A stretch of DNA of 32,000 nucleotides from Nostoc sp. PCC 7120 = FACHB-418 (GCF_000009705.1 NC_003270.1:8341-40340); one strand, 5' to 3'. Positions 2,230-21,169 are shown, counted from the first letter of the stretch. Program-made: numbers and translations. The notes: generated by a model not told the origin, from the sequence alone.

Positions 2230-2250
2230 TGGGGAGAGCGATTGCAATGA

Positions 2251-2484: not shown

Positions 2485-3200
2485 TGGATCATGGCATTGC
2501 AGTAATTAACCCAGTAGCAGGGCATTCCAGCCATATTGACGAAAAAGCCCAAACTTGGGGAGGGTTTGAGGCTGATATCTTGGGCTATTTGGGAGACATT
2601 AACAAGCTTGAGCAGTTCGCAGATTACGCCAACAACGCCCTTGAACTGGCAGAACGTTTAGATCCGTTTCTAGAAAATGCCCGTAGTGCTTTTGAGGCAT
2701 TGCAGAAGCTAACTACGGGTCAGGTAACTTGGACAGAACTTCGTAAGCAATACGGCTCTCATGTCGCCAACGCTATCAACAAAATTAGGGTTCTAAATGC
2801 TCAATTTGATAGTGAAATGCAGCAGCTTGACGCGAAAGACCGAGCCGAACTACTGAAAATTGACCAAAAACGGCAACACGGACTAGCAGAGATAGCCGCA
2901 CAGTTACACGTTGATTTACAAGCTGAACTGTTTAGGCATCAAAACAAACTGACTGGGATTGAGAACAGACAACAAGTCCAAACCGAACGCCAAACAATCA
3001 CCGCCGGATTAAGGGAGAAGCGCCAAGCATTACTGAATCGTGCCAAGTATGGCAGTACAGGAAATGACCAACAACCACGGGAACAGATACCCGTTACTGT
3101 GCAAGCTTCCCCAGCAGCAAGTAGTGTTTCTGCCTCTGGCACAGTTCGCGGGTTTGGCTCCTTCCTGGGGAATTTGTGGCAACGACTGGGCGATCGCTGA
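2484..3200 (+). CDS. coiled-coil protein of unknown function, 238 aa
   Basis: A long open frame with heptad-like Q/E/L/R-rich central region. It is translationally coupled to the upstream ORF. Confidence 0.55.
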   Translation: MDHGIAVINPVAGHSSHIDEKAQTWGGFEADILGYLGDINKLEQFADYANNALELAERLDPFLENARSAFEALQKLTTGQVTWTELRKQYGSHVANAINKIRVLNAQFDSEMQQLDAKDRAELLKIDQKRQHGLAEIAAQLHVDLQAELFRHQNKLTGIENRQQVQTERQTITAGLREKRQALLNRAKYGSTGNDQQPREQIPVTVQASPAASSVSASGTVRGFGSFLGNLWQRLGDR

Positions 3201-3233
3201 CAACTGACAACCAATAGTTAGGGACTAAGGCTG

Positions 3234-3773
3234 ATGTTAGTAAAACGACAACCACAGCAAACTAACGTCAGCCCTTTTTTGTATGAAGGGCTGGCCACAA
3301 CTCCACAACAACAGCAGCAAGCACAACAACCCCCACAACAAGCACTCCCGCCAGAGTCTAACTTTGGCAGAGGCTTGAGAAGGGCGGGAAATGCCTGTGA
3401 GATTATCGCTGGCAGTTGCTTGAATAGCGGTGTTATTTTCACTTTCCACCTTCTACAAGTTCACCCTGTTGGCTTTGTGTTGGCCTTGGGAGTTTCACAT
3501 TTCTACTTGTCAGCAACCGCCGCCGGGGAAGGTAAAGACCGTTTCGCTACCAATGTAATGACTGGGGCTAGTGCTTCACTATCCTTACTATGTGCATTGT
3601 CTGAACCGATAGCCGAGTGGTATGAGGCGCAAGTTTCCAACACTATTGCCGCAGATGTGAGGCGCGAATTGTATGAACCTAAGCAAGCTCCTGACTCTGG
3701 ACTCATGACCATTGGTGCGATCGCATTTGGGCTAGTGGTTCTATTTCTATTTTTTGGCGGGAGGAGAAAATGA
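3234..3773 (+). CDS. membrane protein with Q/P-rich N-terminus, 179 aa
   Basis: Several hydrophobic segments (VIFTFHLLQVHPVGFVLALGV, ASASLSLLCAL, MTIGAIAFGLVVLFLFFGG). Its stop overlaps the next start (ATGA at 3770-3773). Confidence 0.55.
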   Translation: MLVKRQPQQTNVSPFLYEGLATTPQQQQQAQQPPQQALPPESNFGRGLRRAGNACEIIAGSCLNSGVIFTFHLLQVHPVGFVLALGVSHFYLSATAAGEGKDRFATNVMTGASASLSLLCALSEPIAEWYEAQVSNTIAADVRRELYEPKQAPDSGLMTIGAIAFGLVVLFLFFGGRRK

Positions 3774-5536: not shown

Positions 5537-5545
5537 CTGCGATTG

Positions 5546-5706
5546 GTGTCTAGTGTCTAGCCCCAAAAACGCGCTTTTTTCGCGGACACAGGACACCAGA
5601 CACCACAGACACTAAACCCTAAAACCTTTATACAGCATAGACACCAGCAGACACTAGACCAGACACCACCCAGACACCAAGTGTCTAATACGTGTCCGCT
5701 AGACAC
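5546..5706. repeat. iteron-like array: 10 direct GACAC(C) and 4 inverted GTGTC copies (extended unit AGACACC)
   Basis: Direct copies start at 5585, 5592, 5599, 5608, 5640, 5650, 5662, 5673 and 5702 (plus neighbours). Inverted copies start at 5546, 5553, 5681 and 5692. All were read from the sequence. Confidence 0.7.
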
Positions 5707-5760
5707 CAATAATAAATCCCCCAATAAATAGCCATTTATTATTAAAGGATTATCAACATC

Positions 5761-6432
5761 ATGCTGAGAATAGTAATTGTTGAACCAGAAACATTCACGC
5801 TCTTAGGCTTCAAAGCGGCTATTGAACAATCTCCTGATATAGAAGTTACAGGGTCAGCCACCAGTGGAAAGATAGGTTTTCAGTTAATTGAACAAGTAAA
5901 TCCAGATGTTGTGTTAGTTGATTTACTATTACCGGACATGAGCGGTTTAGAACTCACTCGTTCAATTAAAAGAAATACTAATAGTAAAGTGGTGATTTTT
6001 ACTAATGAGACTCATTCAGACTTTATTAACTCGGCTTTCCGTCATGGTGCTGATTCTTATATGCTCAAGAGTGCTGATGTAGAATTGATTGAACTAGCCA
6101 TCAAGAGAGCTTACTTTGATGAATGTCTACTTGACCCAAAGCTGGCTAAAAAACTGTTAGAAAGCCTTTATCAAAATAGATATATTGACCCCACCTTCGT
6201 TGATAAAAACTTGATAGATCCGCCTACCGAGCGCCAAATACAAGTCCTGCGTTTACTGGCTCAGGGTTTAGTTTTTCAAGATATTGCCAAAGAAATGTTT
6301 CTGTCTGTTAGTACGGTCAAACAATATGCCAGTGATTTGTACAGTAAATGGCACGTCAAGAACCGTTATGAGGCGATAAAAAGAGGGGCGATGCTTGGTT
6401 ATATCGACTATAACTTGATTGTGAATGAATGA
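5761..6432 (+). CDS. NarL/LuxR-family response regulator (REC + LuxR-type HTH)
   Basis: Receiver signature VVLVDLLLPDMSG (phospho-Asp), KVVIFTNE and GADSYMLKS. C-terminal HTH PTERQIQVLRLLAQGLVFQDIAKEMFLSVSTVKQYASDLYSKW. Confidence 0.85.
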   Translation: MLRIVIVEPETFTLLGFKAAIEQSPDIEVTGSATSGKIGFQLIEQVNPDVVLVDLLLPDMSGLELTRSIKRNTNSKVVIFTNETHSDFINSAFRHGADSYMLKSADVELIELAIKRAYFDECLLDPKLAKKLLESLYQNRYIDPTFVDKNLIDPPTERQIQVLRLLAQGLVFQDIAKEMFLSVSTVKQYASDLYSKWHVKNRYEAIKRGAMLGYIDYNLIVNE

Positions 6433-6582
6433 TGTATTGGTGAGGAGAGTGGAATGATTAAGTCTGGGATTGAAGCATAAAAACTGGCTGTAACAAAAGA
6501 GAATCGCTTTAAAACGTTGTAATTACGCAATTTTTCGTGGTATATCTGTATCCAAAAAGAAATTTGTATACAGCACCCAGCC

Positions 6583-8622
6583 ATGCCCCAGGACTTCTCC
6601 GGCCAAAATCTTCGTGGGCGCAACTTCAAAGGACAAGACCTTGCGGGTGCAAACTTTAGCTATGCCGACATTCGAGGGGCAAACTTTAGCGGTGCTAACT
6701 TGATAGGGGCAAACTTTACTCTTGCCAAAGCCGGACTGCGACGACGTTGGGTGATTGGTTTAGTTATTGTCTCGTTCTTATTGTCGAGACTGTCAGGATA
6801 TCTCTGTGCTTTTAATGGTTATTTAGTGTCGCTGATATTTAGTTTGTCCACTGATAACCTGATTATCGGCTGGGTTGCTTTAATTATATTGATTCCTTTC
6901 TACTTCATAACCATTCGTCAAGGATTCACAGCTGGTTTTGGATATCTCGCCGTCGCTTTCGCCGTCGCCGTCGCCGTCGCTTTCGCCGGAGCCGGAGGCG
7001 TCGCTTTCGCCGTCGCTTTCGCTTTCGCTGGAGCCGGAGGCGTCGCTTTCGCCGTCGCCGGAGCCGGAGCCGTTGCCGTCGCCGTCGCCTTCGCCGTCGC
7101 TTTCGCCGTCGCCGGAGCCTTCGCCGGAGCCGTTGCCGTCGCCGTCGCCTTCGCTTTCGCCGTCGCCGGAGCCCTCACCTTCGCTGGAGCCTTTGCCTTC
7201 GCCAGAGCCTTCGCCGTCGCTGTCGCCGTCACCGAAATGTTACTGAGCATTTACATTGCTTGGCAAGCCATGAAAGGAAACGAAAAATATTCTCTAGTTC
7301 GCAACATTGCGATTGCCTTTGCTGCAACAGGAGGTACAAGTTTTCGTGGCGCTGACTTAACCAGTGCTGATTTCACCCAAGCCACACTCAAAAGTACAGA
7401 TTTGAGAAACACAATCCTTACTAATACCCATTGGCATCAAGCCAAAATGCTTGACCGTGTTCGCCCTGGCTCGACTTATCTTCAAAATCCACAAATACGT
7501 CAACTGCTGGTTACAGGACAGGGACAGGACAAAAACTTTGACGGTCAAATTCTGCGAGGTATCAATTTACAAAAAGCTAACCTAGCAGATGCCAGCTTTA
7601 TTGGTGCTGACCTCAGTGAAGCCAATTTGCAAGATGCCGATTTGTCAAGGGCAAAGCTAAAGCAAACCCAACTAGACGGCACAGATTTAACAGGTGCAAC
7701 ACTCACCGGAGCTTTCATTGAAGATTGGGGGATTACAAATACAACTAAATTGCATGGGGTGAGGTGTGAATATGTCTTCATGCGCTTACCCACTGCATAT
7801 AACCCCGACCCCCTCCGCAAACCTGATAATAATAAAGAAGTGTTTGCAGACGGTGATTTTGGCGAATTTATTAAACCAATTTTTGATACACTCGACCTCT
7901 ACCATAACCAAAATGTTGACCCCAGAGCGATCGCAATTTCGTTTAAGCAGTTAGCAGAAAATCACCCGGCAGCCGAACTAGAAATTGTGGCAATGGAGAA
8001 ACGGGGACAGGATAAGTTTTTACTTCGCGCTAAAACCGCAGCTAGGGCTGACAAGTCTCAACTGAGTGCAGAATATTTTGATAGTTATAATCAGCTTAAA
8101 GGTTTACCAGAGAGAGAAATTAAATTATTGCTGGCAGAGAAAGAAAATCAAATCCGCAGATTAGAAAATATGGTAATGACGGCACTTGAGCGTCCTAGTT
8201 TTTATTCAAACACCCAAATAGAAAAGGTAAATACAATGACTAATAATCCTGGTGGAATTTCTCAAAATGTAAGTGGCGGTAGTGTGTATGGTGGGATGCA
8301 AGCAGCACAGGGTAATAATAACGTGCAAACTTCAACCACTTATTCTTCACCAGAACAAAAACAAAATCTTGCAGAAGCCGCAGCAGAAATTCAGCAATTA
8401 CTAGAGCAATTAAGCCAGTCTTATCCTACCAATACCAACTCTGAAAAAATGGTATTTGCAATAGAAGCCAAGAAACACGTCGAAAATAACCCAACTTTAA
8501 TGAAGAAAATAATTAGTGCTTTAGAGGCAGGTAGTACGGCTGCTCTAGAACAACTTCTTAGTCATCCCGCAGCAAGTTTTGTAATTGGAGCCTTCGAGGA
8601 TTTCAAAAATAACTCCAAGTAA
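6583..8622 (+). CDS. membrane pentapeptide-repeat protein with an (Ala-X)n low-complexity core and a C-terminal Q/N/G-motif module
   Basis: Two A(D/N)LxX pentapeptide blocks (NLRGRNFKGQDLAGANFSYADIRGANFSGANLIGANF; ANLADASFIGADLSEANLQDADLSRAKLKQTQLDGTDLTGATLTGA). TM segments lie between them. The shared motif is at residues 552-582. Confidence 0.9.
   Translation: MPQDFSGQNLRGRNFKGQDLAGANFSYADIRGANFSGANLIGANFTLAKAGLRRRWVIGLVIVSFLLSRLSGYLCAFNGYLVSLIFSLSTDNLIIGWVALIILIPFYFITIRQGFTAGFGYLAVAFAVAVAVAFAGAGGVAFAVAFAFAGAGGVAFAVAGAGAVAVAVAFAVAFAVAGAFAGAVAVAVAFAFAVAGALTFAGAFAFARAFAVAVAVTEMLLSIYIAWQAMKGNEKYSLVRNIAIAFAATGGTSFRGADLTSADFTQATLKSTDLRNTILTNTHWHQAKMLDRVRPGSTYLQNPQIRQLLVTGQGQDKNFDGQILRGINLQKANLADASFIGADLSEANLQDADLSRAKLKQTQLDGTDLTGATLTGAFIEDWGITNTTKLHGVRCEYVFMRLPTAYNPDPLRKPDNNKEVFADGDFGEFIKPIFDTLDLYHNQNVDPRAIAISFKQLAENHPAAELEIVAMEKRGQDKFLLRAKTAARADKSQLSAEYFDSYNQLKGLPEREIKLLLAEKENQIRRLENMVMTALERPSFYSNTQIEKVNTMTNNPGGISQNVSGGSVYGGMQAAQGNNNVQTSTTYSSPEQKQNLAEAAAEIQQLLEQLSQSYPTNTNSEKMVFAIEAKKHVENNPTLMKKIISALEAGSTAALEQLLSHPAASFVIGAFEDFKNNSK
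6947..7233 (+). repeat. GC-rich 6-nt-periodic tandem repeat (GCC GTC / GCT TTC / GGA GCC units) encoding ~96 aa of A/V/F/G only
   Basis: Read directly. The repeat leaves other frames open on both strands (ORFs 6918-7250 minus and 6938-7246 plus), which are artefacts. Confidence 0.85.
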
Positions 8623-8718
8623 ATATTAACCTCAATAGAAAACACCAAACGAGTTTAGAAGAGTCTTTGCTGCGTTTGGTGTGAAAAATATTTGATATAT
8701 TGCTATGAAATTTTTACT

Positions 8719-10752
8719 ATGGATCAGCCAAAGTCTCCTGATGATAATCAAGCATCTTCGCCTGAACCTGGTATAAGACAGGAGGCTAATAATTCAACTT
8801 TCGGTGGTGGACAGCAGGCTGCAATAGGTAATGATAATATCCAAAATCAGGGGAACAATAACTGGCTAGGTAATACTTGGAATGTTTTTTTTGGGCAGCC
8901 GACAACCCCAGTAGGCAACCCGGCTCGACCAAAGAACGAACGGATACTATTAGCCGCAGTCAAAGAAGAAGTTACTTCCCGGTTAAGGCAGTCTCTACAC
9001 AATGCTGTGCTAATTAATCTAGGGAAAGAATCACAACCCCAGCAGGTAAAACGCTTTTGGGATGCAGAGATAAAAATTGGCTTAAAGCCTGCTGAACCTC
9101 TCTCAGATACCACAACAATTTTGGAAATTTTTGACTCCCAAGAAATTGCAGGTAAGTTGCTAATTCTGGGAAATCCTGGTGCTGGGAAAACTACTACAAT
9201 GCTAGATTTAGCGAAAGCTTTAATTGCACGGGCAGAACAAGATGCTGATTATCCAATTCCAGTATTGTTTAACCTCTCGGCTTGGAAGTATGATAAGCAG
9301 TCGATGCGGGATTGGTTGGTGCTGGAATTAAAGTCGAAATATGTAGTGCGTCAGGATATTGGTGCAAAGTGGTTGGATGATGTCAAGTTGTTACCAATGT
9401 TGGATGGGTTGGATGAACTAGAGTCAGCACGTCAGGAAGCTTGTGTCAATAATATTAATAAATTTGTGCAAAATGAATGGAGATCGCAGTATTTAGTGGT
9501 TTGTAGTCGCTCGGAAGAATACACAAATTATAAAATCAATCTGCAATTAAATGGAGCAATTTTTCTACAACCACTTACAGATAAACAAATTCAGGCATAT
9601 TTAACAAGGCTAAACCAACTAGAATTATGGAGAATAATACAAGTTGATACAGAGCTATTAAAGTTGCTAAGAACATCTCTATTTTTATCAATTTTAGGAT
9701 TTATCTCATTGCATAAAGCTTTATCTCTTCAAGAGTGGAAAACACTTACATCAACTCAAACACGACTGGAATACTTTTTTGGTACTTACTGGGAAACGGC
9801 AATAAGACGAGATATTGTGACTCCACAAATGGAGTCTCAGGGATTTAAAAGCCGTTCTTATGGAAAGAAAAAACCTCCGAGTGAAAAGCAAACACGAAGG
9901 TGGTTACTGTTTTTATCACAGCAGTTACAAAAAGAATCCAGAACTGAATTTTTGATTGAAAAAATGCAATTGTCTTGGTTGATAAATAATAGAGAAAAAT
10001 GGACTTATAGAATATCTTTTGGGATGCTTAGTGCCTTGATAGTTGGAATGATTTTTGGGACATTTGGTGAACTGAATGTTGGTCTAACCTTTGGGCTGAT
10101 TGGCGGACTAATTGGTGGGTTTAAGGAAATTAGATCTGTTGAATCATTTCGTTTTAATTTTACTGATAAACTAGGTAAAAATTTATTTAAAAACATAATC
10201 TATGGACTACTTACTGGACTTAGTTTTGGATTGATTGGTGCATTAATTGGTGAATTTTTTTTAAGGCTGAGTGGCAGAGGTTTGATTGCCGGGTCGTTTT
10301 TTGGCTTAATTAGTGGTGTGATTATTGGACTAATTAATGGGTTAAAAGCTGATATCCAAACTCGAACAAAACCAAACCAAGGAATTTTGGAGTCTGCAAA
10401 GAACTCGGCTGTAATTACCCTAAGCATCCTACTCATTTTTGTTCTGATACAGGCTTTAGCTTCGCAAACTCTCAGCAACATCTTTACTCAACCTAAGTTC
10501 ACTAGTCTTGTAGTTTGTTTACTGGCTGCATCAGTCTGTGGGTGTGGTTCAGCAAGTGGTGGTCAAGGTGGTATGCAGCATTTTACCCTACGCCTCGTCC
10601 TCTACTTCAACGGCTACATCCCTTGGAACTACGCCCGTTTCCTCGACTACTGCACTGAGCGATTATTCCTCCAGCGTGTAGGTGGACGCTACCGCTTCAT
10701 CCACAAACTGCTGCAAGACCACTTCGCGCAAATGGAGTTCAAACGGGATTAA
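8719..10752 (+). CDS. NACHT-type STAND NTPase with N-terminal Q/N/G motif and a C-terminal multi-TM glycine-zipper region
   Basis: Walker A LILGNPGAGKTTT (about nt 9169-9192). NACHT-style Walker B LLPMLDGLDELE. Three GxxxGxxxG-rich hydrophobic blocks. Terminal YRFIHKLLQDHFA resembles the NACHT winged-helix FxHxxxQE(Y/F)xA motif. ATG 8719 is preferred over TTG 8692 because MDQP matches the MNQP starts of two neighbouring motif proteins. Confidence 0.85.
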   Translation: MDQPKSPDDNQASSPEPGIRQEANNSTFGGGQQAAIGNDNIQNQGNNNWLGNTWNVFFGQPTTPVGNPARPKNERILLAAVKEEVTSRLRQSLHNAVLINLGKESQPQQVKRFWDAEIKIGLKPAEPLSDTTTILEIFDSQEIAGKLLILGNPGAGKTTTMLDLAKALIARAEQDADYPIPVLFNLSAWKYDKQSMRDWLVLELKSKYVVRQDIGAKWLDDVKLLPMLDGLDELESARQEACVNNINKFVQNEWRSQYLVVCSRSEEYTNYKINLQLNGAIFLQPLTDKQIQAYLTRLNQLELWRIIQVDTELLKLLRTSLFLSILGFISLHKALSLQEWKTLTSTQTRLEYFFGTYWETAIRRDIVTPQMESQGFKSRSYGKKKPPSEKQTRRWLLFLSQQLQKESRTEFLIEKMQLSWLINNREKWTYRISFGMLSALIVGMIFGTFGELNVGLTFGLIGGLIGGFKEIRSVESFRFNFTDKLGKNLFKNIIYGLLTGLSFGLIGALIGEFFLRLSGRGLIAGSFFGLISGVIIGLINGLKADIQTRTKPNQGILESAKNSAVITLSILLIFVLIQALASQTLSNIFTQPKFTSLVVCLLAASVCGCGSASGGQGGMQHFTLRLVLYFNGYIPWNYARFLDYCTERLFLQRVGGRYRFIHKLLQDHFAQMEFKRD

Positions 10753-10924
10753 GCAGATACCACCAACTCACACAGGGCGATCGCCAATCCCGTCGCCTTT
10801 AAATTTATCGAAGGCTTGAGCCGTGAAAATCTGCGCTTTGATGTAGCTGATACCGTCACTGGATTTGTCTTAGTGAGCTATACTCAATTTTTATTCAAGC
10901 ATCTAAGTAGACAAGATAAATATA

Positions 10925-11359
10925 ATGACTAATAATCCTGGTGGAATTTCCCAAAATGTAAGCGGTGGTAATGTGTACGGTGGTATGCAAGCGGCGCAGG
11001 GCGACAAAAACCAGCAAACAATGGAGACCAATGTAGTCGCATCTGGTGAAAAACAGCTAACTCAGGAAGATGTAATTCGGATGTTAGCGCAGATAGAACA
11101 ATTAGTAGGTGCAAACCCAGAACTACCAGAAGCAGTTAAAGAAAAGTCACTCAAATATCTAGGAGCCGCTAAAGAAGAAGCTCAAGTTCCTGAACCTGAT
11201 AAACAGTTGGCATCTGGGAATCTCAAACGGATGGCAGAAACACTGAAAACTACAAGCGAAACTGTAGCATCAACTAAAAACCTTTGGGAGAATGTTAAAC
11301 CAATTTTGTTGGAACTACCCGGCTGGCTAGGTGTTGCTAAAAGTTTCTTTGGATTTTAG
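10925..11359 (+). CDS. 144-aa protein: N-terminal Q/N/G motif, helical body and hydrophobic C-terminal tail; stand-alone paralogue of the pentapeptide protein's C-terminal module
   Basis: 25 of its first 26 residues are identical to residues 552-577 of the 6583-8622 protein. C-terminus ILLELPGWLGVAKSFFGF. The next ORF starts 12 nt downstream. Confidence 0.65.
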   Translation: MTNNPGGISQNVSGGNVYGGMQAAQGDKNQQTMETNVVASGEKQLTQEDVIRMLAQIEQLVGANPELPEAVKEKSLKYLGAAKEEAQVPEPDKQLASGNLKRMAETLKTTSETVASTKNLWENVKPILLELPGWLGVAKSFFGF

Positions 11360-11371
11360 TAAGACAAATCT

Positions 11372-12349
11372 ATGAATCAGCCGCCTTTATCTGACTCTAC
11401 CTCAAACCAGCCTCTTCAGAATACCCTTCAGCAGAATGCGGAAAGCTCGACACTGGGAGGAGGTATTCAAGGTACTCAGGGTAATAACAATATCCAGATT
11501 CAGGGATCAGAAAATCAGGTTAACAATATTAACTTGACACTGGTTTTAAATGAAAAAACAATTGAACAAACAAAAAATAGTGAACAACCAATTATTACTG
11601 AATCTGGGTTAGTTATTGAATCATCAGGAAGTTGGGTTTTATTACAAGGTTACTTCTTTCAAACAGAAACTGTTCGCCAGCATCAAGATGGCACATTAAC
11701 TGTAATGATTCCGTCTGAGAGTTCCCAAGACGATGCAACAATTCAATCACTTCGTCCTGACCGTTGGGGACAGTCACAGCTAACTACATTCGCTTATCGA
11801 AATGATGGTTTTCTTGTCAAGGTTGAGGAGATAGAAGCAGAATCTAGAAGGGACTCTTATATATGGAAACTCACTCTCAAGCCAGCAAACATCGAGTATG
11901 GTGGTAGTACTTTTGAAATGTCATATCAAGAACGCGACCAAACCTACTCAGCCGATGACATTGCTAATTTGAGAGGAAGACGGATATTACTGAACGATCC
12001 GCCCAAGCAGGTCATAGATGCTAAGTTTTACAGGCCTGCTTCGGCAAACAATCAAATGCTTGAGACGTTAATTAGAGGTATTAATACCCCCATTCAAGTT
12101 GAAAATTGTGTGCTGCAACCTCTATACTCTGTTTACAAGGATAGACCAAAGCTTTTTCTTGAACTGGCACGACTGATGGCTATTTTTTCTCTGAAAGCTG
12201 GCGATGTTGTTGAGCAAGTACTGGAATTGGCATTAGGGCCAATTGAACAAGCCAGCGTTCATGTAAGATTTCGAGGTAGAAGACGGAAGAAGTATGTTAA
12301 TGTCGAGCCATCTATCATTGAAATAGAAGGTGATTGTCCTCTTGAATAA
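11372..12349 (+). CDS. 325-aa protein: N-terminal MNQP leader, Q/N/G motif and a domain of unknown fold
   Basis: A long open frame only 12 nt after the previous stop. Motif ESSTLGGGIQGTQGNNNIQ at nt 11432-11518. No catalytic motif recognised. Confidence 0.65.
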   Translation: MNQPPLSDSTSNQPLQNTLQQNAESSTLGGGIQGTQGNNNIQIQGSENQVNNINLTLVLNEKTIEQTKNSEQPIITESGLVIESSGSWVLLQGYFFQTETVRQHQDGTLTVMIPSESSQDDATIQSLRPDRWGQSQLTTFAYRNDGFLVKVEEIEAESRRDSYIWKLTLKPANIEYGGSTFEMSYQERDQTYSADDIANLRGRRILLNDPPKQVIDAKFYRPASANNQMLETLIRGINTPIQVENCVLQPLYSVYKDRPKLFLELARLMAIFSLKAGDVVEQVLELALGPIEQASVHVRFRGRRRKKYVNVEPSIIEIEGDCPLE

Positions 12350-12532
12350 CTGGGGGATAAAATATTAGGCATATTCTCTACTCTGTCGCAGAATAACCAT
12401 GCACAATCTCGCAGGTTTTTTGCGCGACATGGCTCTATTAAATGCCATGCTTATCGTAATAAAGATATTTTCTGTTGATAATTACAACTTGTGATTAAAA
12501 TTACTAATATGTCCAGCTATTAACTTATTTGG

Positions 12533-15500
12533 ATGTCGCAGATTTACAAATGGAAAAGGTTTTGGTATCCAAGGTCAGGTAGGATTAATCTGACAGGCTT
12601 TGGTTATTTATATGACCCAGATACAGACTTTGGACATTACCTAAATCCAGATTTAGTAACATTTAATGCAATAGCTCATTTACCCTGTTTGGCACTTCTA
12701 GGAGAACCAGGAATTGGTAAGAGCTTTGCTATTGAGGCAGAGCAAAAAATAATCGATGCCAAAATCAAAGAAGAAGGTTCCCAGATACTCAGGTTAAACC
12801 TTCGTGAATACAGCAGCGAAGACAGATTAGTCCGCAGGTTTTTTGAAAGTCCAACTTTTAATGCTTGGATACAGGGTCAGCATCGGCTTTATGTTTTTCT
12901 TGACAGTTTAGACGAGTGTCTATTGAGAATTAACACTCTGGCTGCACTATTAGTAGGCGAGTTATCAAATTACTCAAACCACGTAGAACGCTTATATCTT
13001 CGCATTACCTGTAGAACTGCTGATTGGCCTAATAGTCTTGAACAAGGGCTGAAAAAAATTTGGGGAAAAGAGGCTGTAGGAGTTTACGAGTTAGCTCCCT
13101 TGCTTCGGGTAGACATTGCCTCGGCTGCACAAACAAAGGGTTTAGACGAGAACAACTTTCTTCAAGCTATTGAAGAACAAGAAGTTGTGCCATTGGCTAT
13201 CAAGCCAATTACACTAAAATTTTTACTAAACACATACTGCAACAACGGTAGCCTACCCACCCAGCAAACAGAACTATATTTAAAAGGTTGCCAATTGCTA
13301 TGTGAAGACACCGAAGATCGCCGTGATGCTCGGCTCACTGGCAACTTTACTGCTGACCAAAGAATGGTTGTTGCCGCTCGTATTGCCGCCGTAACAGTTT
13401 TCTGCAATCGATATGCTGTATGGATGGACATAGACCAAGGTGAAGTTCCCCCAGAAGATGTTGTGATTCGGGAGCTAGTTGGAGGAATAGAATTTATTCA
13501 GGGAGACGAATTTTCTGTAACCAAAGATGCTGTTAGAGAAGTATTGTCTACAGCATTATTTTCTTCTCGCGGATGTCATCGTATGGGGTGGGCGCACCAG
13601 ACTTATGCTGAGTTTCTTGCTGCTTGGTATTTGCAACACCGTCAATTAACCTTAGAGCAAATGATGAGCTTAATAGTTCATCCAGGCGACCCTGATGGCA
13701 AATTGATTCCCCAACTTCAGGAAACAGCAGTTTGGTTATCAAGTATAAATCAAAAAGTTTTTCAGGAGGTAATGAAGACAAACCCAGACATTTTATTAAA
13801 CAGCAGCGTAGCCACTGCTGACGATACAGTTAAAGCAAATTTAGTTGAGTCATTGCTAAAACTTTATGACGAAGGAAAGTTGTTGTATGAACCCAGATAT
13901 GGGGCGTATATACACTTGAAACATCAAAACTTAGCGGCTCAACTTCAATCATATATTTATGATGCCAGTAAGAACGAAACCGCACGATATGTGGCAATCG
14001 AAATTGCACAACAGTGTGAAGAAAAATCGCTTCAAGGAGACCTAGTTAGTATTGCCCTTGCCCCTGAACAACCTTATTGGGTTAGGGTAAATGCCGCAGA
14101 TACAATTTGTCTTATTGGTGATGAAGAAACTAAAGCAAGATTAAAACCATTAGCTACTGGTAAAGCGGGGGATGATACTGAAAATGAACTCAAGGGCTAT
14201 GGTCTTCGTGCTGTTTGGCCGAATCATATAACAGCAGCAGAGTTATTCAATATTCTTATACAGCCTACAAACAAGGCTACTGGTGGAACATATCAAAATT
14301 TTGTTGCCAAAGATATTGGACGACAAATACAGTTGGATGATTTGGCAATAGCTTTGAAGTGGGTTGAACAGCAACCTCTAAGACGCGATTTATGTTACCC
14401 ATTTAATGAACTGGCAGATACCATACTGCTAAAAGCTTGGGAACATCTTGATGTTCCAGATATACTCAAAGCTTTTGCAAATATAGTTTATTATAGGCTC
14501 AAAAATCATGACCAAATTACAGATAACCGTATATATAATGAAAACGAATCTTCTTGTGAAGAGCTACTAATACAAGATGACAATAAACGTCGTCAAATTT
14601 TAGAAACAATAGTTACTAGATTTTCTCAATCAGAAGCAGAAAGAATAGGAGTTTTAAGTTACAACTTTCCAGGAATAAACCAAGATTTCCTGTGGATTTT
14701 AGAAAAACTCAAAGAATCATCATCCGAAGCTAATCAGCTAGCATGGGCAAAGTTAATCTGGCGACTATTCAAGAGATATGACCCAGAACAAGTAAATGCA
14801 ATACTTACAATTAGCGAAGATATTCCCATACTAAAAGCAGAATTTTCAAAATTGATTGAACCAATAAAATTAACTTCTCAAACAGCAATAGAAGAAAGAG
14901 CAAATTACTTAGAAGACCTGAAACAGCAGGAGCGTAATAATAATCAACAACTTTTAGACCCACCTCCCAAAGACCGAATTATCAAATGTTTAGACCAATT
15001 TGAATCTGGAAATCTTAATTCCTGGACGCAGATATGTCATGATATAACACTTATACCCAATAGCATATACTATGACAAGATGCTATTGTTTAAACCAAAT
15101 ATAACAACGCTTCCTGGTTGGGAGGAAGCAGAATCATTAACAAAAACAAGAATTATAGGAGCTGCAAAAGTATATATACGTAAAGGAGACCCTATAACGT
15201 CGCAATGGCTAGGAACCAGTAAGTTTTATTACTCTACATTAGCTGGTTACAAAGCACTATGCTTAATTTTACAAGAAGAACCAGAGTATATATATGCTAT
15301 TCCTGATGGTGTTTGGAAAAAGTGGACGGCAGTTATACTCGATTATCCCAAAACAGGTAATCCAAAAGATGAAGAAATTCGTCAAGAATTGGTGAAAAAT
15401 ACTTACAAAGTCGCTCCAGATGAAGTTATCAATACCCTCATTATTTTGATTGACAAAGAAAATCAGGATAACGGTTCTATTTCAATTCACCATGCACTAG

Positions 15501-16441
15501 AAAAATGCTGGGATAAACGCTTGGCAAGTACCGTTTTTAGTAAAGTAAAAAATCATCAGTTAAAGCATGAAAATTTAAGTAATTTACTTGAGGCACTCAT
15601 AAGCCACAACTTTGATGAAGCCAAAACTTTTGCTGAATCATTAATTTCTTTACCCATTCCTGAAGATGCTGAGGAAAGAGCCAAAGTACTTGCCGCAGCA
15701 ACAGCTCTTATGAGATATGCAAAAGATGCAGGCTGGTCAGTTGTTTGGGATGTGATTCACCACGACCCAGAATTTGGTAGAGAATTAATTGAAGCTGTAT
15801 CTTACTCTTTTGAATACACAGATAGTTTAGAGCAGAGACTAAAAGAAGAATATATAGCAGATTTATACATTTTTCTTGTTCAGGAATATCCTCCTATTGA
15901 AAAAAGTAAGCAAGACGATTCTCAAGCAGAAGAACTCACGGGCATAGAAGCCTACAGAATAAGACCAAAAGATGCTGTCACCACCTGGAGAAACAATATT
16001 CCACAGCGTCTCAAAAACCGTGGTACACCTGAAGCTTGTGAGGCTATTCGGCGAATCATGCGCGAACTACCAGACCAAAAGGATAAATTGGAGCGGTTTT
16101 TATTAGAAGCTGAGACTTTAACTCTCCGTAATACCTGGATTTCACCGCAACCATCAATAATAATTGAACTAGCAAAAAGTAGTTACTCTAAAGAGGTACA
16201 GTCTTTAGTCAACTATGGAATCATACAAAATTTTCAAGACAGCACTGTTCACGGCAGCGTGCAGGCATTACAAGGTAATCATAACCAACAAAGTATTGAG
16301 AATGCAAATGTAGTTTCTCAGGAGAACCTGGCTAATACTCCAGTTCAAAAACATATATTATGTACTAATTGCGGTCATGTAAATCCAAATAGTTGTAAGT
16401 TTTGCTCCCAATGTGGGCAAAAAATAATATCACAAATTTGA
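12533..16441 (+). CDS. 1302-aa STAND/NACHT-like NTPase with HEAT/ARM-like repeats, a C-terminal Q/N/G motif and a terminal zinc ribbon
   Basis: Walker A LLGEPGIGKSF (nt 12701-12724). Walker B LYVFLDSLDECL. WAHQTYAEFLAAWYL (NACHT WH-like). HEAT-like VRVNAADTICLIGDEETKARLKPL. Motif at nt 16226-16291. CTNCGHVNPNSCKFCSQCGQ CxxC...CxxC ribbon at the end. Confidence 0.85.
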   Translation: MSQIYKWKRFWYPRSGRINLTGFGYLYDPDTDFGHYLNPDLVTFNAIAHLPCLALLGEPGIGKSFAIEAEQKIIDAKIKEEGSQILRLNLREYSSEDRLVRRFFESPTFNAWIQGQHRLYVFLDSLDECLLRINTLAALLVGELSNYSNHVERLYLRITCRTADWPNSLEQGLKKIWGKEAVGVYELAPLLRVDIASAAQTKGLDENNFLQAIEEQEVVPLAIKPITLKFLLNTYCNNGSLPTQQTELYLKGCQLLCEDTEDRRDARLTGNFTADQRMVVAARIAAVTVFCNRYAVWMDIDQGEVPPEDVVIRELVGGIEFIQGDEFSVTKDAVREVLSTALFSSRGCHRMGWAHQTYAEFLAAWYLQHRQLTLEQMMSLIVHPGDPDGKLIPQLQETAVWLSSINQKVFQEVMKTNPDILLNSSVATADDTVKANLVESLLKLYDEGKLLYEPRYGAYIHLKHQNLAAQLQSYIYDASKNETARYVAIEIAQQCEEKSLQGDLVSIALAPEQPYWVRVNAADTICLIGDEETKARLKPLATGKAGDDTENELKGYGLRAVWPNHITAAELFNILIQPTNKATGGTYQNFVAKDIGRQIQLDDLAIALKWVEQQPLRRDLCYPFNELADTILLKAWEHLDVPDILKAFANIVYYRLKNHDQITDNRIYNENESSCEELLIQDDNKRRQILETIVTRFSQSEAERIGVLSYNFPGINQDFLWILEKLKESSSEANQLAWAKLIWRLFKRYDPEQVNAILTISEDIPILKAEFSKLIEPIKLTSQTAIEERANYLEDLKQQERNNNQQLLDPPPKDRIIKCLDQFESGNLNSWTQICHDITLIPNSIYYDKMLLFKPNITTLPGWEEAESLTKTRIIGAAKVYIRKGDPITSQWLGTSKFYYSTLAGYKALCLILQEEPEYIYAIPDGVWKKWTAVILDYPKTGNPKDEEIRQELVKNTYKVAPDEVINTLIILIDKENQDNGSISIHHALEKCWDKRLASTVFSKVKNHQLKHENLSNLLEALISHNFDEAKTFAESLISLPIPEDAEERAKVLAAATALMRYAKDAGWSVVWDVIHHDPEFGRELIEAVSYSFEYTDSLEQRLKEEYIADLYIFLVQEYPPIEKSKQDDSQAEELTGIEAYRIRPKDAVTTWRNNIPQRLKNRGTPEACEAIRRIMRELPDQKDKLERFLLEAETLTLRNTWISPQPSIIIELAKSSYSKEVQSLVNYGIIQNFQDSTVHGSVQALQGNHNQQSIENANVVSQENLANTPVQKHILCTNCGHVNPNSCKFCSQCGQKIISQI

Positions 16442-16527
16442 GACGTAAACAATAACTTCATTTATAATTTTTAACTTTGATTCAAGGGATTATTTACTAT
16501 TATAAAATTTACTTTCTTACTTTTATA

Positions 16528-17547
16528 TCACTCGGAATCCTTCAACATCCCCGTTAACAATTCCGACATTTCCCACAGGTCTTTATTCCGGTTATCATCA
16601 TAAATCATCAACGTTCTGGGGTCAGCATGACGGCTCAACTTCTGCACCTTTCTAATATTCCCATCCGTCGCATCAAGTGCTGCCGTAATCGCCGAATGCC
16701 TCACCCTGTGAGGTGACATCGGTTTCTTTACCCCCACCTTCTTAAAAGCACTAGCCACTATTTTATAGATAGCATCCGTAGTCAATCTATGCCCAGAGTT
16801 ATGAAAATCTAATGCTGTAAAAATTGGTAAATCGGGTTTCAAATCCCCTCGTGCAATCAACCAATCAGCTATCGCCGCCGCCACATCTTTTGACATATCT
16901 AAATATTCTTCATTCGTTCCCTTCCCCTTACCCAAAACTCGCAACTTGCGCCCATAAAAATCAAAGTCACCCACATTTAACTGACATATCTCCTGACGAC
17001 GCAAAGCTAAACCCCACAGCACCAGAAAGATGGCATAATTGCGTTTACCAATCAAAGTCTCCCTGTCAAACTGCCCAAGTACAAGTGCTATCGTCTTGCT
17101 ATCAACCCCCCGCGTATCTCGATATGCCTTGACCTTCTCCCCTTCGACATCTTCCAGGGAATAATTGCACACCCCCAACTTCCGCCCCATCTTCGCCAAA
17201 GACTTAATCGCCGCCAACCGCCGATTAATTGTTGCTTCCCGCACCCCCGAAGCTATCAATTTCGCCTTATACTTCAGCACCACCATCACCGCTTGCTCGC
17301 GCTGCAAGTGCAGAAACTCCAGCACACTATCCCCAGTTGGCGGCATTAGAGTCATCTTCATAAAGAAATCCCGCAAATCTTTCTCGTAAGCCCGCCGAGT
17401 ATTGGGGTTGCGCTTATCTGCCAACAGTTGCGCCAACACATCCGGGTCGCCCTGAAGCTCTGCGTCAAAATACCTAGTGATTGGCGCATCTAGACACGCT
17501 TCTAACTCTACCTTGACTAATTCCCCCCAAACCGGCTCGTTAGGCAT
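16528..17547 (-). CDS. tyrosine site-specific recombinase (phage integrase/XerCD family)
   Basis: Catalytic signature elements: ALRRQEICQL (Arg I), HRVRHSAITAAL (H-x-x-R) and LSRHADPRTLMIYD (His/Tyr). An N-terminal SAM-like core-binding region is also present. Confidence 0.9.
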   Translation of the reverse strand: MPNEPVWGELVKVELEACLDAPITRYFDAELQGDPDVLAQLLADKRNPNTRRAYEKDLRDFFMKMTLMPPTGDSVLEFLHLQREQAVMVVLKYKAKLIASGVREATINRRLAAIKSLAKMGRKLGVCNYSLEDVEGEKVKAYRDTRGVDSKTIALVLGQFDRETLIGKRNYAIFLVLWGLALRRQEICQLNVGDFDFYGRKLRVLGKGKGTNEEYLDMSKDVAAAIADWLIARGDLKPDLPIFTALDFHNSGHRLTTDAIYKIVASAFKKVGVKKPMSPHRVRHSAITAALDATDGNIRKVQKLSRHADPRTLMIYDDNRNKDLWEMSELLTGMLKDSE

Positions 17548-17993
17548 AATTGCTCACTACTGCGTTATTGATAATACAGATTTCCAATAACGTTCATCAT
17601 ACTCCGCTAAGGGAGTGCATTAATCTTTACATTCACTTCGGAGTAAAATATTTCTTGCGGAAGTTGGCAGGTGTTAATTAGTTATGTTAAGTCTGTAATT
17701 TCCGGCTGAGATATCAAAATTGATAGCTAAAAGTGGGGGATGTGGTGCAGATGTCTTTGAGGTAAGCCAGTTTATCAAATATCCGACTTGCCCATGCCCA
17801 GCAAATGAATGAGCTATGGTTGAGTTTAAAGTTTTTAATTTTAGATAATTAATCACATCACATTGATGTATTCTGAGCTAAAATTTCTCTTTTTTTATTT
17901 GAGGTTATTTTCAACCCAAGAGCAAAATAAAGTAGCTCCGATGAGCGCAAAAATTTAATGAATAATGGCTAGTTTTATTCTTAATAAAAAATA

Positions 17994-20924
17994 TTAAAGG
18001 CCACAATTTTCTATACGAGATAGAAATCGAGTTATGTCTGATAGTCTCCTAGCGGTGGGCGTAGTATGAAACAGATATGAAAACCCCCAAGGAAAAATTG
18101 GGTAAGAAGGAAGATGTCCTTCTGGTGCATCCATATTGTAAATTAACTCATTTTGATATAACCATCGTGTTTTTTTACGCCAGCCAATATATTCGCCAAA
18201 TTTTTCCCATATTTTCTGACTATAATTATTAGTTCCACCTAATCTTTTATAAATGTCCTTTTGAACTTTGAACCCAAAATGACCCTTACTAGCGTATATC
18301 CATAGGTCATTAATAATTCTAATATCCTCACAGGGAAAATACTTAATATATTTAGTGTCTAAAAATTTTTCTTCTAACTGCCCGCTTATTTGAAGTATTA
18401 ATCTCGCTGTTTCTTCATCAGCTTTTTTCCATTCAAAATTTAAAAGATAATAAAATAGTTGAGTATATTTATCTGGCAATACAACATTTAATATATGAAT
18501 CCCAGTTTCAGATAATGTTTCATCATCATTAAAATCATATTGTTTCTTTTCATATTCTGTTAATAATCTATAATAGTTGGCAAATTCTTTTATATTTAAC
18601 TGGGCATTAATATTTTGTGTTTTACTCCATGTTGTCAGCCAAGCACAAAATCTATTTGCGATTTGCCAACTTATTCCATTAACGGGTTTTTGGGAATCTC
18701 CAGGTAAGAATCTATTACCATGCCAATTTTCAGGATATAAAGCATTACCTGTTTCTTCAATAAATAACTGATATTCAACGCAAGTAATATAACTATTATC
18801 AATTTGTTTTTTTTCATCAATACGAACTAGTCTACCTAATCGCCTCGCCAACTTTACTTGTGCTGCTAATTTTAAAATTTCTATATCAGATGATTCTAAA
18901 CCATCATCCAAAGTTTTAATCAGTCTTTCTCTTATAATTGGAGCCACTTTTAAACTTTCCTCCTGACAATCTAGTGCAAGTTTTAAAGACATTAAATCTA
19001 AATTACTTAAAGCTGTAGAAATTATATTAGTTGCATCAGTTTGGGCAGCATAAAGTCTAATAGTTTCGTGCCACCAATCATCTTTTAATTTATTAATTAA
19101 TATATGTTCTTGTTTACTTTCTTTTATTTGAACTGCTGCTAAGTATTCTTGGAAACTTTTATGAGCAAATTCATAAATATTTTTTTCTTTTTCTACAAGT
19201 AATCCACAGACATCCTCAACATTTTTTATAAAATCTTCTGGTGATAATTTATTACCAGCTACTTGTGATAAAACATCTTGGATAACTGAACTACCTAACA
19301 TTAAATCAAACTCACGAGTATTTTGATTCATTAAAAATAATGCTAAAACTTGAAGTACTACTTTCTTCTGATCAGATGTTAGTAAATCAGCAATTCCTTT
19401 AGAATCTTGTCGCCTACCCAACATAACATCACAAATTTCAGCATACAATTCTACTCTTCTTCCTGGTAAAGCACCACGATAACAATGAACTGTAGCAATC
19501 ATAGTTAATAACAGTGGATTTAAAGCCATTGCCGCTAAAGATGAATTATTTTTTATACGTTCAATTAGATCATCGGATTTTCGGTTAGCATTCTGTTGTA
19601 TACCTTGATCTTTTTGCCCATGCCGACTCATAATTTCATTTTGAAGATACCAATTTTGGATAAAAAATTGCACCTGCTTTGAGTTAAATGGATGTATTTC
19701 TAAAATTGCCTTAATGTTTTCCACAGGGGCGCTACGATAACCAAAAGGGCGAGAGGTTAGTAAAAAAATAGCATGAGGATATTCTTGAATTTGCTTGTTT
19801 ACCCATCTACTAATTAATTGGCGTTGATGAAGCTCTACTTCATCTAATCCATCGAACATTACTAAACATTTCTGAGTTTTATAATTTCTAGTTGTTAAAT
19901 TTATATTTAATCTCAAATTATCTTCAAACCAACTTTTTAATGGCTGATTTTTTTTTACTAATTCTTGTTGTTCAATTAAAGTTGGTAAATCAGGTTGCTC
20001 TTCAATAATTGAGTTTTGAATCTCCCGTAAATAAAGTATTATGGGAATTAATTCAGGCGCTTTAGCATTATGCTGAAAATATGTATTGTTAGCATAATTT
20101 AAAACCAAGTATTCCAACAAAGTTGTTTTACCATATCCTGGAGGAGCGATGATTGCTATACTACGAAAAGCATGGAACTCCTGACTTGCTATTAACCAAT
20201 CCCATATCTCTGTTGGATTAGATCCATATTTAAGATGAATCATACCGTTAGGTATTCTATCAACACATTCTGGTGCAAGCCTGAGTGCTACAAATACCTT
20301 TTCTAGATCCAAAGTAAAAGGGCCTTTAGTTTTCAATCCTTGAGTCCGATAATCACGGCAATTATAAATTAATTCATCATAATACCTTTTTTTAAATTTT
20401 CTTGATTCTTCCTCCCAAGAATATGGTGTTTTTATAGCATTTGCTTCTTGGAATGTATTTAATTGTTTATATCTTTCATGATTTTTCCATTTCAAAATAA
20501 TATCTATTAGTAAAATTAATAAAGCAATTAGAAAATACAAATCTTGTGATAATAGCCATTTCCAAATAATATTTATTATCCATTTAAATAATTGGTTTAG
20601 CAAAGTCAAATCAATATTTGTATTTTTGAAACGTTCATGAATTGCTATCGCCAGAAATGCTGTTAAAAAAAAGAGCGGTAGTAAAGGTAATACTCGTTTA
20701 AATTCTTTTATGAAAAAACTTTCAGTGATTTCTGTTTCTTTATACGGATTAATAGAAATATTTACATTATTTCCCGACGAAGTATTATTAGACTGATTTT
20801 GAAAATTTTTATTTCCTTTAATAGCCTGCATTCCATTATCTAAAGTAGAAGTATCAACTTGTTGTTGAATATCAATATCCTGTTTAGATGGTTGATTAGG
20901 TTCTGGATTTAGCGGCTGATTCAT
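17994..20924 (-). CDS. NACHT NTPase with N-terminal Q/N/G motif, two TM helices, an FGE/SUMF1-like segment and a C-terminal GUN4-like domain
   Basis: Walker A IIAPPGYGKTTL (nt about 20121-20144, minus strand). Walker B LVMFDGLDEVE. YEFAHKSFQEYLAA. PVNGISWQIANRFCAWL (FGE-sulfatase-type signature). GHFGFKVQKDIYKRLGG...WEKFGEYIGWR...APEGHLP (GUN4-type signature). ATG 20924 (MNQP) is preferred over TTG 20960. Confidence 0.85.
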   Translation of the reverse strand: MNQPLNPEPNQPSKQDIDIQQQVDTSTLDNGMQAIKGNKNFQNQSNNTSSGNNVNISINPYKETEITESFFIKEFKRVLPLLPLFFLTAFLAIAIHERFKNTNIDLTLLNQLFKWIINIIWKWLLSQDLYFLIALLILLIDIILKWKNHERYKQLNTFQEANAIKTPYSWEEESRKFKKRYYDELIYNCRDYRTQGLKTKGPFTLDLEKVFVALRLAPECVDRIPNGMIHLKYGSNPTEIWDWLIASQEFHAFRSIAIIAPPGYGKTTLLEYLVLNYANNTYFQHNAKAPELIPIILYLREIQNSIIEEQPDLPTLIEQQELVKKNQPLKSWFEDNLRLNINLTTRNYKTQKCLVMFDGLDEVELHQRQLISRWVNKQIQEYPHAIFLLTSRPFGYRSAPVENIKAILEIHPFNSKQVQFFIQNWYLQNEIMSRHGQKDQGIQQNANRKSDDLIERIKNNSSLAAMALNPLLLTMIATVHCYRGALPGRRVELYAEICDVMLGRRQDSKGIADLLTSDQKKVVLQVLALFLMNQNTREFDLMLGSSVIQDVLSQVAGNKLSPEDFIKNVEDVCGLLVEKEKNIYEFAHKSFQEYLAAVQIKESKQEHILINKLKDDWWHETIRLYAAQTDATNIISTALSNLDLMSLKLALDCQEESLKVAPIIRERLIKTLDDGLESSDIEILKLAAQVKLARRLGRLVRIDEKKQIDNSYITCVEYQLFIEETGNALYPENWHGNRFLPGDSQKPVNGISWQIANRFCAWLTTWSKTQNINAQLNIKEFANYYRLLTEYEKKQYDFNDDETLSETGIHILNVVLPDKYTQLFYYLLNFEWKKADEETARLILQISGQLEEKFLDTKYIKYFPCEDIRIINDLWIYASKGHFGFKVQKDIYKRLGGTNNYSQKIWEKFGEYIGWRKKTRWLYQNELIYNMDAPEGHLPSYPIFPWGFSYLFHTTPTARRLSDITRFLSRIENCGL

Positions 20925-21169
20925 AAAAAAATAATTATTAATAATTAATTTACTTTTCAAATTCTTAGTTTTCTAAAGAATACCGTTGAAGAAATTAGAC
21001 TTAGAAACCCTATGGCATAGTTAATTACAAGATTTAATTCAAAACTTTATATAAAATATACCATAAAAAATACGTGTTATAAAGCTTTTAAGCGTTTGAT
21101 TTCCTTGGAGCAAGCTAGTGTTTAGAGGTGAGTTACCTTCTTAGGGGTAAATATAGCGAAGACACTGTT

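Follow-up and report, generated by a model that had tools for sequence, protein, structure and literature searches.

The sequence considered here is a window of 32,000 nucleotides (nt) from Nostoc sp. PCC 7120 = FACHB-418 (NC_003270.1, positions 8341 to 40340), in which six genes, here designated A to F, encode proteins that share a short motif rich in Q, N and G. Coordinates are counted from the first nucleotide of the window. A regular expression search of the six-frame translation with [SG][STN]xx[GN][GS]xQ[AG]xxG[ND]xNxQ identified exactly six matches, all within long open reading frames (ORFs), which confirms the six proteins of the original prediction; the loose core Qx3G[ND]xNxQ returns the same six only. 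The matches are at 8278-8328 (A), 8794-8844 (C), 10967-11017 (B), 11447-11497 (D) and 16241-16291 (E) on the plus strand and at 20849-20799 (F) on the minus strand, six copies within 14.4 kb. The conserved unit exceeds the core first described, covering approximately 27-29 amino acids with the pattern [GD]-I-x-Q-x-h-x-x-S-T-h-x-G-G-M-Q-A-x-x-G-N-x-N-x-Q and the consensus PGIQQQVENSTVGGGMQAAQGNNNQQIQG. Positions Q11, Q23, G27, N30 and Q32 are invariant in the alignment of the six window copies.

The motif matches fall into two forms. The sensor-side form, ...PEPGIxQQxENSThxGGMQAxxGxxNIQxQG, is at the extreme N-terminus after a proline-rich leader that begins M-x-Q-P, and is carried in the window by C, D and F. 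The partner-side form, NPGGISQxxSGGxxxGGMQAxQGxxNQQ[TS]M, is followed by a tail domain and is carried by A and B; the copy in E is mixed and groups with these two. Motif copies are 46-78% identical within the group of A, B and E and 42-53% identical within that of C, D and F; copies from different groups share 32-42%. The bit scores given for each copy below come from a motif hidden Markov model (HMM) built from 93 unique segments of 29 amino acids.

Gene A (6583..8622, plus strand, 679 amino acids) was recognized from its translation, from a Pfam Pentapeptide match (7.6e-32) and from syntenic pentapeptide/NACHT pairs on Nostocales plasmids. Its product consists of pentapeptide repeats, an Ala/Val/Phe-rich hydrophobic region, further pentapeptide repeats, a conserved domain, a coiled coil, the partner-side motif and a helical tail. 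The motif (GGISQNVSGGSVYGGMQAAQGNNNVQT; 8251..8331, plus strand, 45.7 bits, also found by regular expression) is internal, at approximately residues 557-582, with some 97 amino acids of tail beyond it. The description of the shared motif as terminal is wrong for A, and the start at 8236 originally given for the copy in A includes an upstream extension. Between the two pentapeptide blocks there is a GC-rich stretch (6923-7258, approximately residues 115-225) with 12- and 18-nt periodicity and 15 overlapping copies, the product of which is a dipeptide-like hydrophobic repeat of Ala/Val/Phe/Gly (AFAVAVAVAFAGAGGVAFAV...). Its other two frames are low-complexity ORFs, one rich in Pro/Ser/Leu/Glu and one in Ala/Lys/Thr/Pro. 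A membrane segment and a length-variable region are candidate readings of this repeat.

Gene B (10925..11359, plus strand) encodes 144 amino acids with the partner-side motif at the N-terminus (10940..11026, plus strand, 51.6 bits), then a four-helix bundle and a hydrophobic C-terminal tail (WLGVAKSFFGF). It has approximately 40 homologues, which are cyanobacterial wherever the source is named. In its AlphaFold2 model residues 1-40 are disordered (pLDDT ~42) and residues 45-144 form the four-helix bundle (pLDDT >93), yet 12 of the 14 nearly invariant columns of the family are within residues 1-31. Because conservation is concentrated in this predicted-disordered segment, it points to a functional peptide motif. 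There is no Pfam or NCBIfam match to B, and its profile has no significant match to PDB sequences. Residues 25-127 match the C-terminal part of PADLOC PDC-M14B (positions 160-258 of 267; E 2.2e-6), a 'candidate' defence-system protein, so B-like bundles may already have been flagged statistically as defence-associated, without a mechanism.

A 132-nt direct repeat links A and B at the DNA level. Copy 1 is at 8199-8330, within A, and copy 2 is at 10888-11019, both on the plus strand and with 84% identity. The second copy spans the motif and the 36 nt upstream of the B ATG, with an in-frame stop within those 36 nt. B appears to be a detached tail cassette of A-type proteins, a tail module of pentapeptide or CHAT proteins, and the view that the six proteins are unrelated outside the motif does not extend to this pair. 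In comparison with polymorphic-toxin-like orphan cassettes, the DNA-level repeat is confined to A and B, the remaining copies being alike at the protein level only. B starts at an ATG of its own, and many genomes conserve it as a stand-alone gene.

Gene C (8719..10752, plus strand) encodes an N-terminal motif, a NACHT NTPase (Pfam, 7.8e-7) and a C-terminal multi-pass hydrophobic region. The motif is of the sensor-side form (PGIRQEANNSTFGGGQQAAIGNDNIQNQG; 8767..8853, plus strand, 44.4 bits, also found by regular expression), and Walker A is 105 amino acids beyond it. The start is most likely the ATG at 8719 (MDQP...), as in homologue P0051; homologues of C begin MDQPKSPDDNQ.

Gene D (11372..12349, plus strand, 325 amino acids) has a sensor-side motif at its N-terminus (11429..11506, plus strand, 36.3 bits), followed by an uncharacterised alpha/beta domain of approximately 245 amino acids (11610-12349, residues ~80-325). 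In the AlphaFold2 model (pTM 0.79) residues 1-50 are disordered. The domain has no match in Pfam, NCBIfam, PADLOC or PDB, and a profile search against PDB sequences was empty or non-significant. Foldseek gave weak beta-barrel similarities only (phage baseplate, Hcp and the HerA N-terminal domain), with TM-scores of 0.22 or less. There are 94 homologues (P0123-P0211 among them), and the domain is widespread in cyanobacteria and Planctomycetes. At their N-terminus most homologues have a class III cyclase, TIR, caspase, CHAT or PNP_UDP domain instead of the motif, and DUF4062 is also found. The D-domain has the appearance of a conflict-system module, as yet unnamed, for sensing or regulation. Since D has the sensor-side motif and its domain is fused elsewhere to effector domains, it looks like a fourth sensor-type protein. 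The motif in D appears to fill the effector slot, because homologues have the cyclase, TIR, caspase or PNP domain there; by analogy, this would be the logic of NLRs that exchange a fused effector for a signalling motif.

Gene E (12533..16441, plus strand, 1302 amino acids) encodes an EruA-like bacterial NACHT body (residues 1 to ~1224) followed by an add-on that consists of the motif (16217..16297, plus strand, 27.1 bits, also found by regular expression) and a zinc ribbon (Pfam Zn_Ribbon_1, residues 1277-1297). The last two are considered an add-on because E homologues on other plasmids align to residues 4-1224 only. The NCBIfam antiphage_EruA model matches at 1e-55 over residues 44-1216, and HyoA at 1e-34. 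The EruA score of 189.6 bits is below the equivalog cutoff of 1000, so E is a relative and not an equivalog. A literature search on EruA and HyoA found no relevant paper. The three STAND/NACHT assignments of the original prediction (C, E and F) are upheld, that of E by a model match below the equivalog cutoff. Its division into three sensors and three partners is not, given the sensor-like character of D and the partner-side form carried by E, a STAND protein, as a C-terminal add-on.

The segment containing D and E (11381..16518, plus strand) behaves in sequence comparisons as an exchangeable cassette. By blastn, relatives are homologous up to 11380 and again from 16519-16541 onwards, the second point varying between relatives. 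Their gene tables, together with motif scans, show that Nostoc foliaceum FACHB-393, LEGE 11386, Fischerella CENA71 and Nostoc UIC 10890 have a single motif-bearing STAND gene of 1553-1563 amino acids in place of D and E.

Gene F (17994..20924, minus strand) encodes an N-terminal motif, hydrophobic helices, NACHT (Pfam, 1.2e-9), an FGE-sulfatase-like region and GUN4 (1.9e-31). The FGE-sulfatase match is weak and sub-threshold (8.7e-3; 16.2 bits against a cutoff of 23.3), and the GUN4 part matches the C-terminal part of PADLOC PD-T4-6 (1.6e-31). The start is most likely the ATG at 20924, and the sensor-side motif is at 20790..20873 on the minus strand (35.3 bits, regular expression match 20849-20799). 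F is within an AT-rich segment (18001-21000, GC 0.29-0.31 against 0.36-0.50 elsewhere), on the opposite strand and beyond a tyrosine recombinase gene. Together these suggest that F was acquired separately, possibly recently. It is outside the transcription unit of the other genes.

Avd proteins accompany diversity-generating retroelements. A related island in Nostoc sp. UIC 10890 (L004) has a bAvd/23S_rRNA_IVP-like gene at 14640-15059, just beyond the recombinase. A link between F and such a retroelement was considered and dropped, there being no reverse transcriptase or Avd gene in the window. FGE/C-type-lectin STAND proteins are described as retroelement targets in PMC10907252, where a term search found no mention of the motif.

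The motif itself is rare. When the six-sequence profile was run exhaustively with HMMER against 1.84e9 protein cluster representatives, 72 matches reached E<=1e-3; with so few matches overall, the abundance of the motif in the window is far above chance. In most of the matches it is at residues ~10-53, and in the remainder it is ~100-150 residues before the end of proteins of ~700 amino acids. The named sources are all Nostocales, except for single contigs of Phormidesmis, of Coleofasciculaceae and of unclassified cyanobacteria and one weak Planctomycete match. Sensor-side carriers elsewhere are NACHT, NACHT-peptidase S26, NB-ARC-TPR, nSTAND1-WD40, CHASE2, DctP-type and TPR-only proteins, with NACHT, nSTAND1 and NB-ARC recognized by Pfam. 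The partner-side form is found within pentapeptide/transmembrane proteins, in Caspase/CHAT-motif-B-domain proteins (mostly, outside the window), in stand-alone B and once before a TRADD-N domain (P0072).

The carriers are also paired as neighbouring genes. A survey of one genome per species, seeded with the B-family alignment, gave 47 loci, almost all from Nostocales and none from the source genome. Being seeded on the partner-side form, it covers the neighbourhoods of partner-side carriers, with a bias towards loci that have the B domain. A scan of every ORF in these loci with the motif HMM showed at least two motif ORFs in 38 of the 47, and in 35 of the 47 the next ORF downstream on the same strand has an N-terminal motif. 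In 24 of these 35 downstream ORFs there is a Walker A (STAND-type) NTPase signature within 450 amino acids. The commonest chromosomal arrangement is a CHAT-motif-B-domain gene followed by a motif-nSTAND1-WD40 gene, and in approximately seven loci stand-alone B is paired with a motif-transmembrane-DctP receptor. Within the window, A and C are adjacent motif genes, and B is beside both C and D.

Stand-alone B-family genes in L003 (10439-11749) and in L035-L041 (~10.4-11.9 kb each) are 12-13 nt upstream of a gene for a protein of ~440 amino acids, which has an N-terminal motif, a predicted transmembrane segment and a DctP (TRAP-type solute-binding) domain. The CHASE2 protein P0085 likewise begins with the motif. 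Because DctP and CHASE2 proteins carry it at the N-terminus, their sequences suggest that the same coupling peptide also serves extracytoplasmic ligand sensors.

Homologous pentapeptide/NACHT pairs on plasmids have three motif families, and it is always the same family that is present in the linker of the pentapeptide protein and at the N-terminus of the NACHT protein. In type I, found in this window and in L004, L006 and L010, both sides are the window motif. Type II, in L005 (10500-11700), L008 and L009, has NVQGDNNRAVQGDNNQAVLGDGNQV on the pentapeptide side and VVQGNQNRVVQGNENQSVLGDNNTV on the NACHT side, with a QGDxN periodicity of 8 residues. Type III, in L007 (5000-5700), has LQNAQFGGGLVNADTVNAEQIGGNI on the pentapeptide side and LRNSQFGGGLINAETVNAQRIGGDI on the NACHT side, with the pattern QFGGGLxNAxTVNAxxIGG. 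Motif identity is 43-66% within pairs and at best <=33% across types. Types II and III are further candidate signalling motifs. The tail beyond the motif also varies among the plasmid pentapeptide proteins, being an A-type tail, a B domain or a caspase/CHAT-like domain (HG...C motif, by eye).

The window is most likely part of a Nostocales plasmid of a kind annotated elsewhere with CyRepA1 replication proteins, since backbone genes are present: a ParM-like actin (488-1540), a HerA/T4CP-like P-loop ATPase (3770-5536), a LuxR-type response regulator (5761-6432), a DDE transposase (25057-26727), ParA/ParB (27559-29259) and a Fic/DOC protein (29497-29883). Positions 1-6500 are ~83% identical to small Nostoc and Tolypothrix plasmids. 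Related plasmids have in common the ATPase, the LuxR-type response regulator, the pentapeptide protein, the NACHT gene and the tyrosine recombinase. The recombinase gene (16528..17547, minus strand; Pfam Phage_integrase 2.9e-21) bounds the variable gene block, is conserved in position on related plasmids and has nucleotide matches of 85-90% on many Nostocales plasmids. It provides a context for the cassettes, its action on them being only putative. A scan for promoters and terminators was no better than shuffled sequences, so the operon structure is deduced only from the distances between the genes, which are 97, 173, 13 and 184 nt.

The known class of motifs closest to this one is that of BASS1-10, defined from Bell-domain protein C-termini and the N-termini of adjacent NLRs (Dyrka et al. 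2020, bioRxiv 10.1101/2020.01.06.895854; datasets PMC8086366). These are ~25 amino acids long, with an excess of Q, N and G (also V and I) and a shortage of K, P and L (Dyrka et al. 2020, bioRxiv 10.1101/2020.01.06.895854), and BASS1 and BASS3 form prions and fibrils. The window motif, at ~25-30 amino acids, has the same Q/N/G-rich bias: the 93 segments contain G 18.6%, Q 18.4%, N 11.8% and I 8.0%, with S also high, against K 1.6%, L 1.5% and P 1.2%. It too occupies the very N-terminal end of NACHT, NB-ARC or nSTAND proteins and occurs again in the protein encoded by the collinear gene immediately upstream, and its carriers share the multicellular, filamentous habit to which BASS systems are restricted. 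Several motif families are interchangeable at one position, and CHAT-type effectors occur as alternatives, in both. The partners here differ in that no Bell domain is recognizable by Pfam, NCBIfam or PDB comparison, and a remote Bell homology may exist. Further differences are the presence of up to six carriers in a single island and of carriers that are not NTPases (DctP, CHASE2 and D-domain proteins).

In some NLRs the motif is in tandem with a BASS4-type motif at the N-terminus (...GGMQAIQGDNNIQLQG...QKIFENVQAEGNITVGDITQIYQ), as in BAZ20405.1 (PMC8086366 supplementary file 28), P0065 and P0110. In BAZ20405.1 it precedes the BASS4 motif, and the published label is BASS4. Such an arrangement of sequences might allow a single sensor to address two partner classes.

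Other systems share some of these features. The E. coli antiphage system Bab/Agp (BASS11; bioRxiv 10.1101/2024.11.07.622273) is amyloid-switched and consists of two genes, a sensor and a small helical executioner with a common short motif, and it provides a precedent for non-NLR sensors and for an abortive infection outcome. It is from another phylum, and in Bab the helical domain is first and the motif last; the comparison with the present system, the function of which is putative, is one of organization. NACHT modules of the bNACHT/Avs antiphage STAND NTPases are present in C, E and F, and E aligns to EruA almost throughout its body. Characterised members have a fused N-terminal effector, whereas here a short motif is in that slot (C, F) or is appended C-terminally (E), which implies that the effector is supplied in trans.

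The EADs, Death-like and TRADD-N adaptors, in the surveys by Kaur et al. (2020, 2021; PMC7159879, PMC8195603), are small constant adaptors common to STAND sensors and separate effectors, with fast-varying partners, and a term search of both surveys found no mention of the motif. The motif carrier P0072 also has a TRADD-N domain. However, EADs are folded helical domains of ~80-100 amino acids, and the motif is a predicted-disordered peptide of ~28.

Comparative sequence evidence strongly supports a role of the motif as a dedicated module that couples NLR-type sensors to neighbouring partners: the motif is rare, is N-terminal on STAND proteins, is found in adjacent collinear pairs in 35 of the 47 loci, is replaced by a matched family in both partners of plasmid pairs, and has a BASS-like composition. 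The interpretation originally put forward, a motif-coupled network of sensors and partners, is partly supported. A more specific reading, to which we assign a probability of about 0.6, takes the ~27-29 amino acids as a motif dedicated to homotypic signalling, of the BASS functional class and of an unnamed family, which is proposed to template its partner via a stacked fold. We infer physical interaction, amyloid templating, an effector activity of B and a biological trigger; contact, templating and a membrane-active B executioner would follow the examples of HET-s/NWD2, Bell/NLR and Bab/Agp.

According to this proposal, a trigger would make the sensor oligomerise, crowding its disordered N-terminal motifs, which would then take an ordered cross-beta or similar stacked fold. 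The ordered fold would recruit and convert the same motif in the partner proteins (A, B or E). Conversion would activate the partner tails, of which the B four-helix bundle with its hydrophobic C-terminal segment is a plausible membrane-active executioner; in relatives the activated tail would be a CHAT protease. The likely outcome would be growth arrest or cell death, as in abortive infection.

Several results weigh against templating of this kind. Paired type-I motifs have no residue-level co-variation, the mean identity within loci being 0.400 and that of shuffled pairs 0.399, and 5364 of 10000 shuffles reach the identity observed within loci. A single continuous stretch of DNA, made up of the tail, the intergenic region and the 5' end of the next gene, encodes the two motif copies of a pair, and the matching of families could be due in part to exchange of that stretch as a unit. 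In BASS partners the motif is C-terminal, after the Bell domain, but here it is N-terminal to a helical domain (B) or internal (A and the CHAT proteins). The role of B as an executioner is a guess, because its modelled bundle has no significant fold match to solved structures, whether pore-forming or not; Foldseek against PDB found generic helical bundles only (best E 0.55).

Nor does the motif match BASS3 by profile: an HMM of 42 published BASS3 sequences scores the six window copies at -4.8 to 12.2 bits. Aligning them requires a deletion at the RHIM hydrophobic position before G. The half-motif G-[DN]-x-N-x-Q, followed by more Q/N positions, is shared with RHIM, fungal PP and BASS3, but the window copies, with Q-[AG]-x-x-G-[ND]-x-N-x-Q, have neither the (I/V)-Q-(I/V/L)-G core nor the trailing x-N-x-F. 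The sequence sets of BASS7, 8 and 9 do not resemble it by eye. BASS1, 2, 5, 6 and 10 were compared by word search only, in which six motif pentamers and hexamers (e.g. GGMQA, MQAIQG) were sought in all 69 dataset files of PMC8086366 and the only match in a BASS set was BAZ20405.1. The motif was not found among the unassigned pairs of the Dyrka et al. datasets. As far as these comparisons reach, the family is undescribed, as had been thought possible.

The alternative that survives best is a real coupling module for sensors and partners that is not amyloid, whether stoichiometric, for example by beta-augmentation, or a common handle for a third factor such as a protease, chaperone or modifying enzyme. 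All of the association evidence fits it equally well. A common handle predicts the lack of fine-scale co-variation between partners that was found, and an internal motif, as in A and the CHAT proteins, is unlike the terminal motifs of BASS. However, the length of the motif, its Q/N/G-rich and K/P/L-poor composition, its predicted disorder, its position at the N-terminus of NLRs and its tandem occurrence with BASS4 are hallmarks of the amyloid signalling motifs already known, and no candidate third factor is conserved beside the pairs in the loci inspected. A non-amyloid adaptor or common handle is a serious rival, although on this evidence we regard it as rather unlikely.

It is improbable, and poorly supported, that the motif is mainly a recombination junction for cassette shuffling, like the pre-toxin motifs of polymorphic toxins, the peptide having no signalling role. 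The A/B repeat does reach upstream of the B start codon, the B domain is found elsewhere as a fusion with pentapeptide or CHAT proteins, and the D and E block replaces a gene for 1563 amino acids with a breakpoint 9 nt into the downstream gene. However, that breakpoint, at 11380, precedes the D motif rather than falling within it, and copies outside A and B share only 72-78% over 32 nt, which protein conservation alone would give. A DNA junction would not need near-invariance of amino acids in ~40 diverged B homologues, nor, where a STAND protein belongs to a chromosomal two-gene pair, any placement at its very N-terminus. Least probable of all, and also poorly supported, is the reading of the motif as a commonplace Q/N/G linker of low complexity, or as a signal for sorting or secretion, widespread in cyanobacteria and unrelated to STAND signalling. 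The original prediction had set this beforehand as its opposing case. The simple composition, the predicted disorder and the fact that A and C are membrane proteins would suit it, but it is largely refuted by the rarity of the motif (72 in 1.84e9) and the tight pairing of carriers as neighbouring genes, and specific positions are invariant, carriers include cytosolic WD40 and TPR STAND proteins, and there is no hydrophobic core like that of a signal peptide.

A wider form of the homotypic signalling proposal concerns the island as a whole. The type-I motifs look interchangeable, and therefore several plasmid sensors could feed the same executioners. The island might then be a plasmid-borne, many-to-many, prion-like hub, in which four unrelated sensor-type proteins (NACHT-transmembrane, D-domain, EruA-like NACHT and NACHT-FGE-GUN4) converge on shared executioners via a cross-seeding motif, a bacterial counterpart of the RHIM necrosome, with the motif also on DctP and CHASE2 transmembrane receptors. 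This is put forward tentatively, as possible rather than probable.

If the motif templates like the BASS motifs, a well-populated family would be added to the dozen or so known amyloid signalling motifs, and would be of interest to the fields of bacterial NLRs and functional amyloids. It would bring, on the executioner side, the four-helix bundle of B as a new module that often follows a CHAT protease, as well as an inverted topology, with the motif before the helical domain, and carriers that are not NTPases (D-domain proteins and DctP and CHASE2 receptors). The D-domain is a lead in its own right, as an uncharacterised module of ~245 amino acids, which many bacteria have as a fusion with cyclase, TIR, caspase and PNP effectors. 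The island would also be a natural case of several sensors with shared partners on one mobile plasmid. With several sensors on one island, it becomes a testable question whether bacterial amyloid signalling motifs are private one-to-one wires or shared buses. Were the island indeed such a hub, amyloid-type signalling would extend from cytosolic NLRs to sensing at the cell surface.

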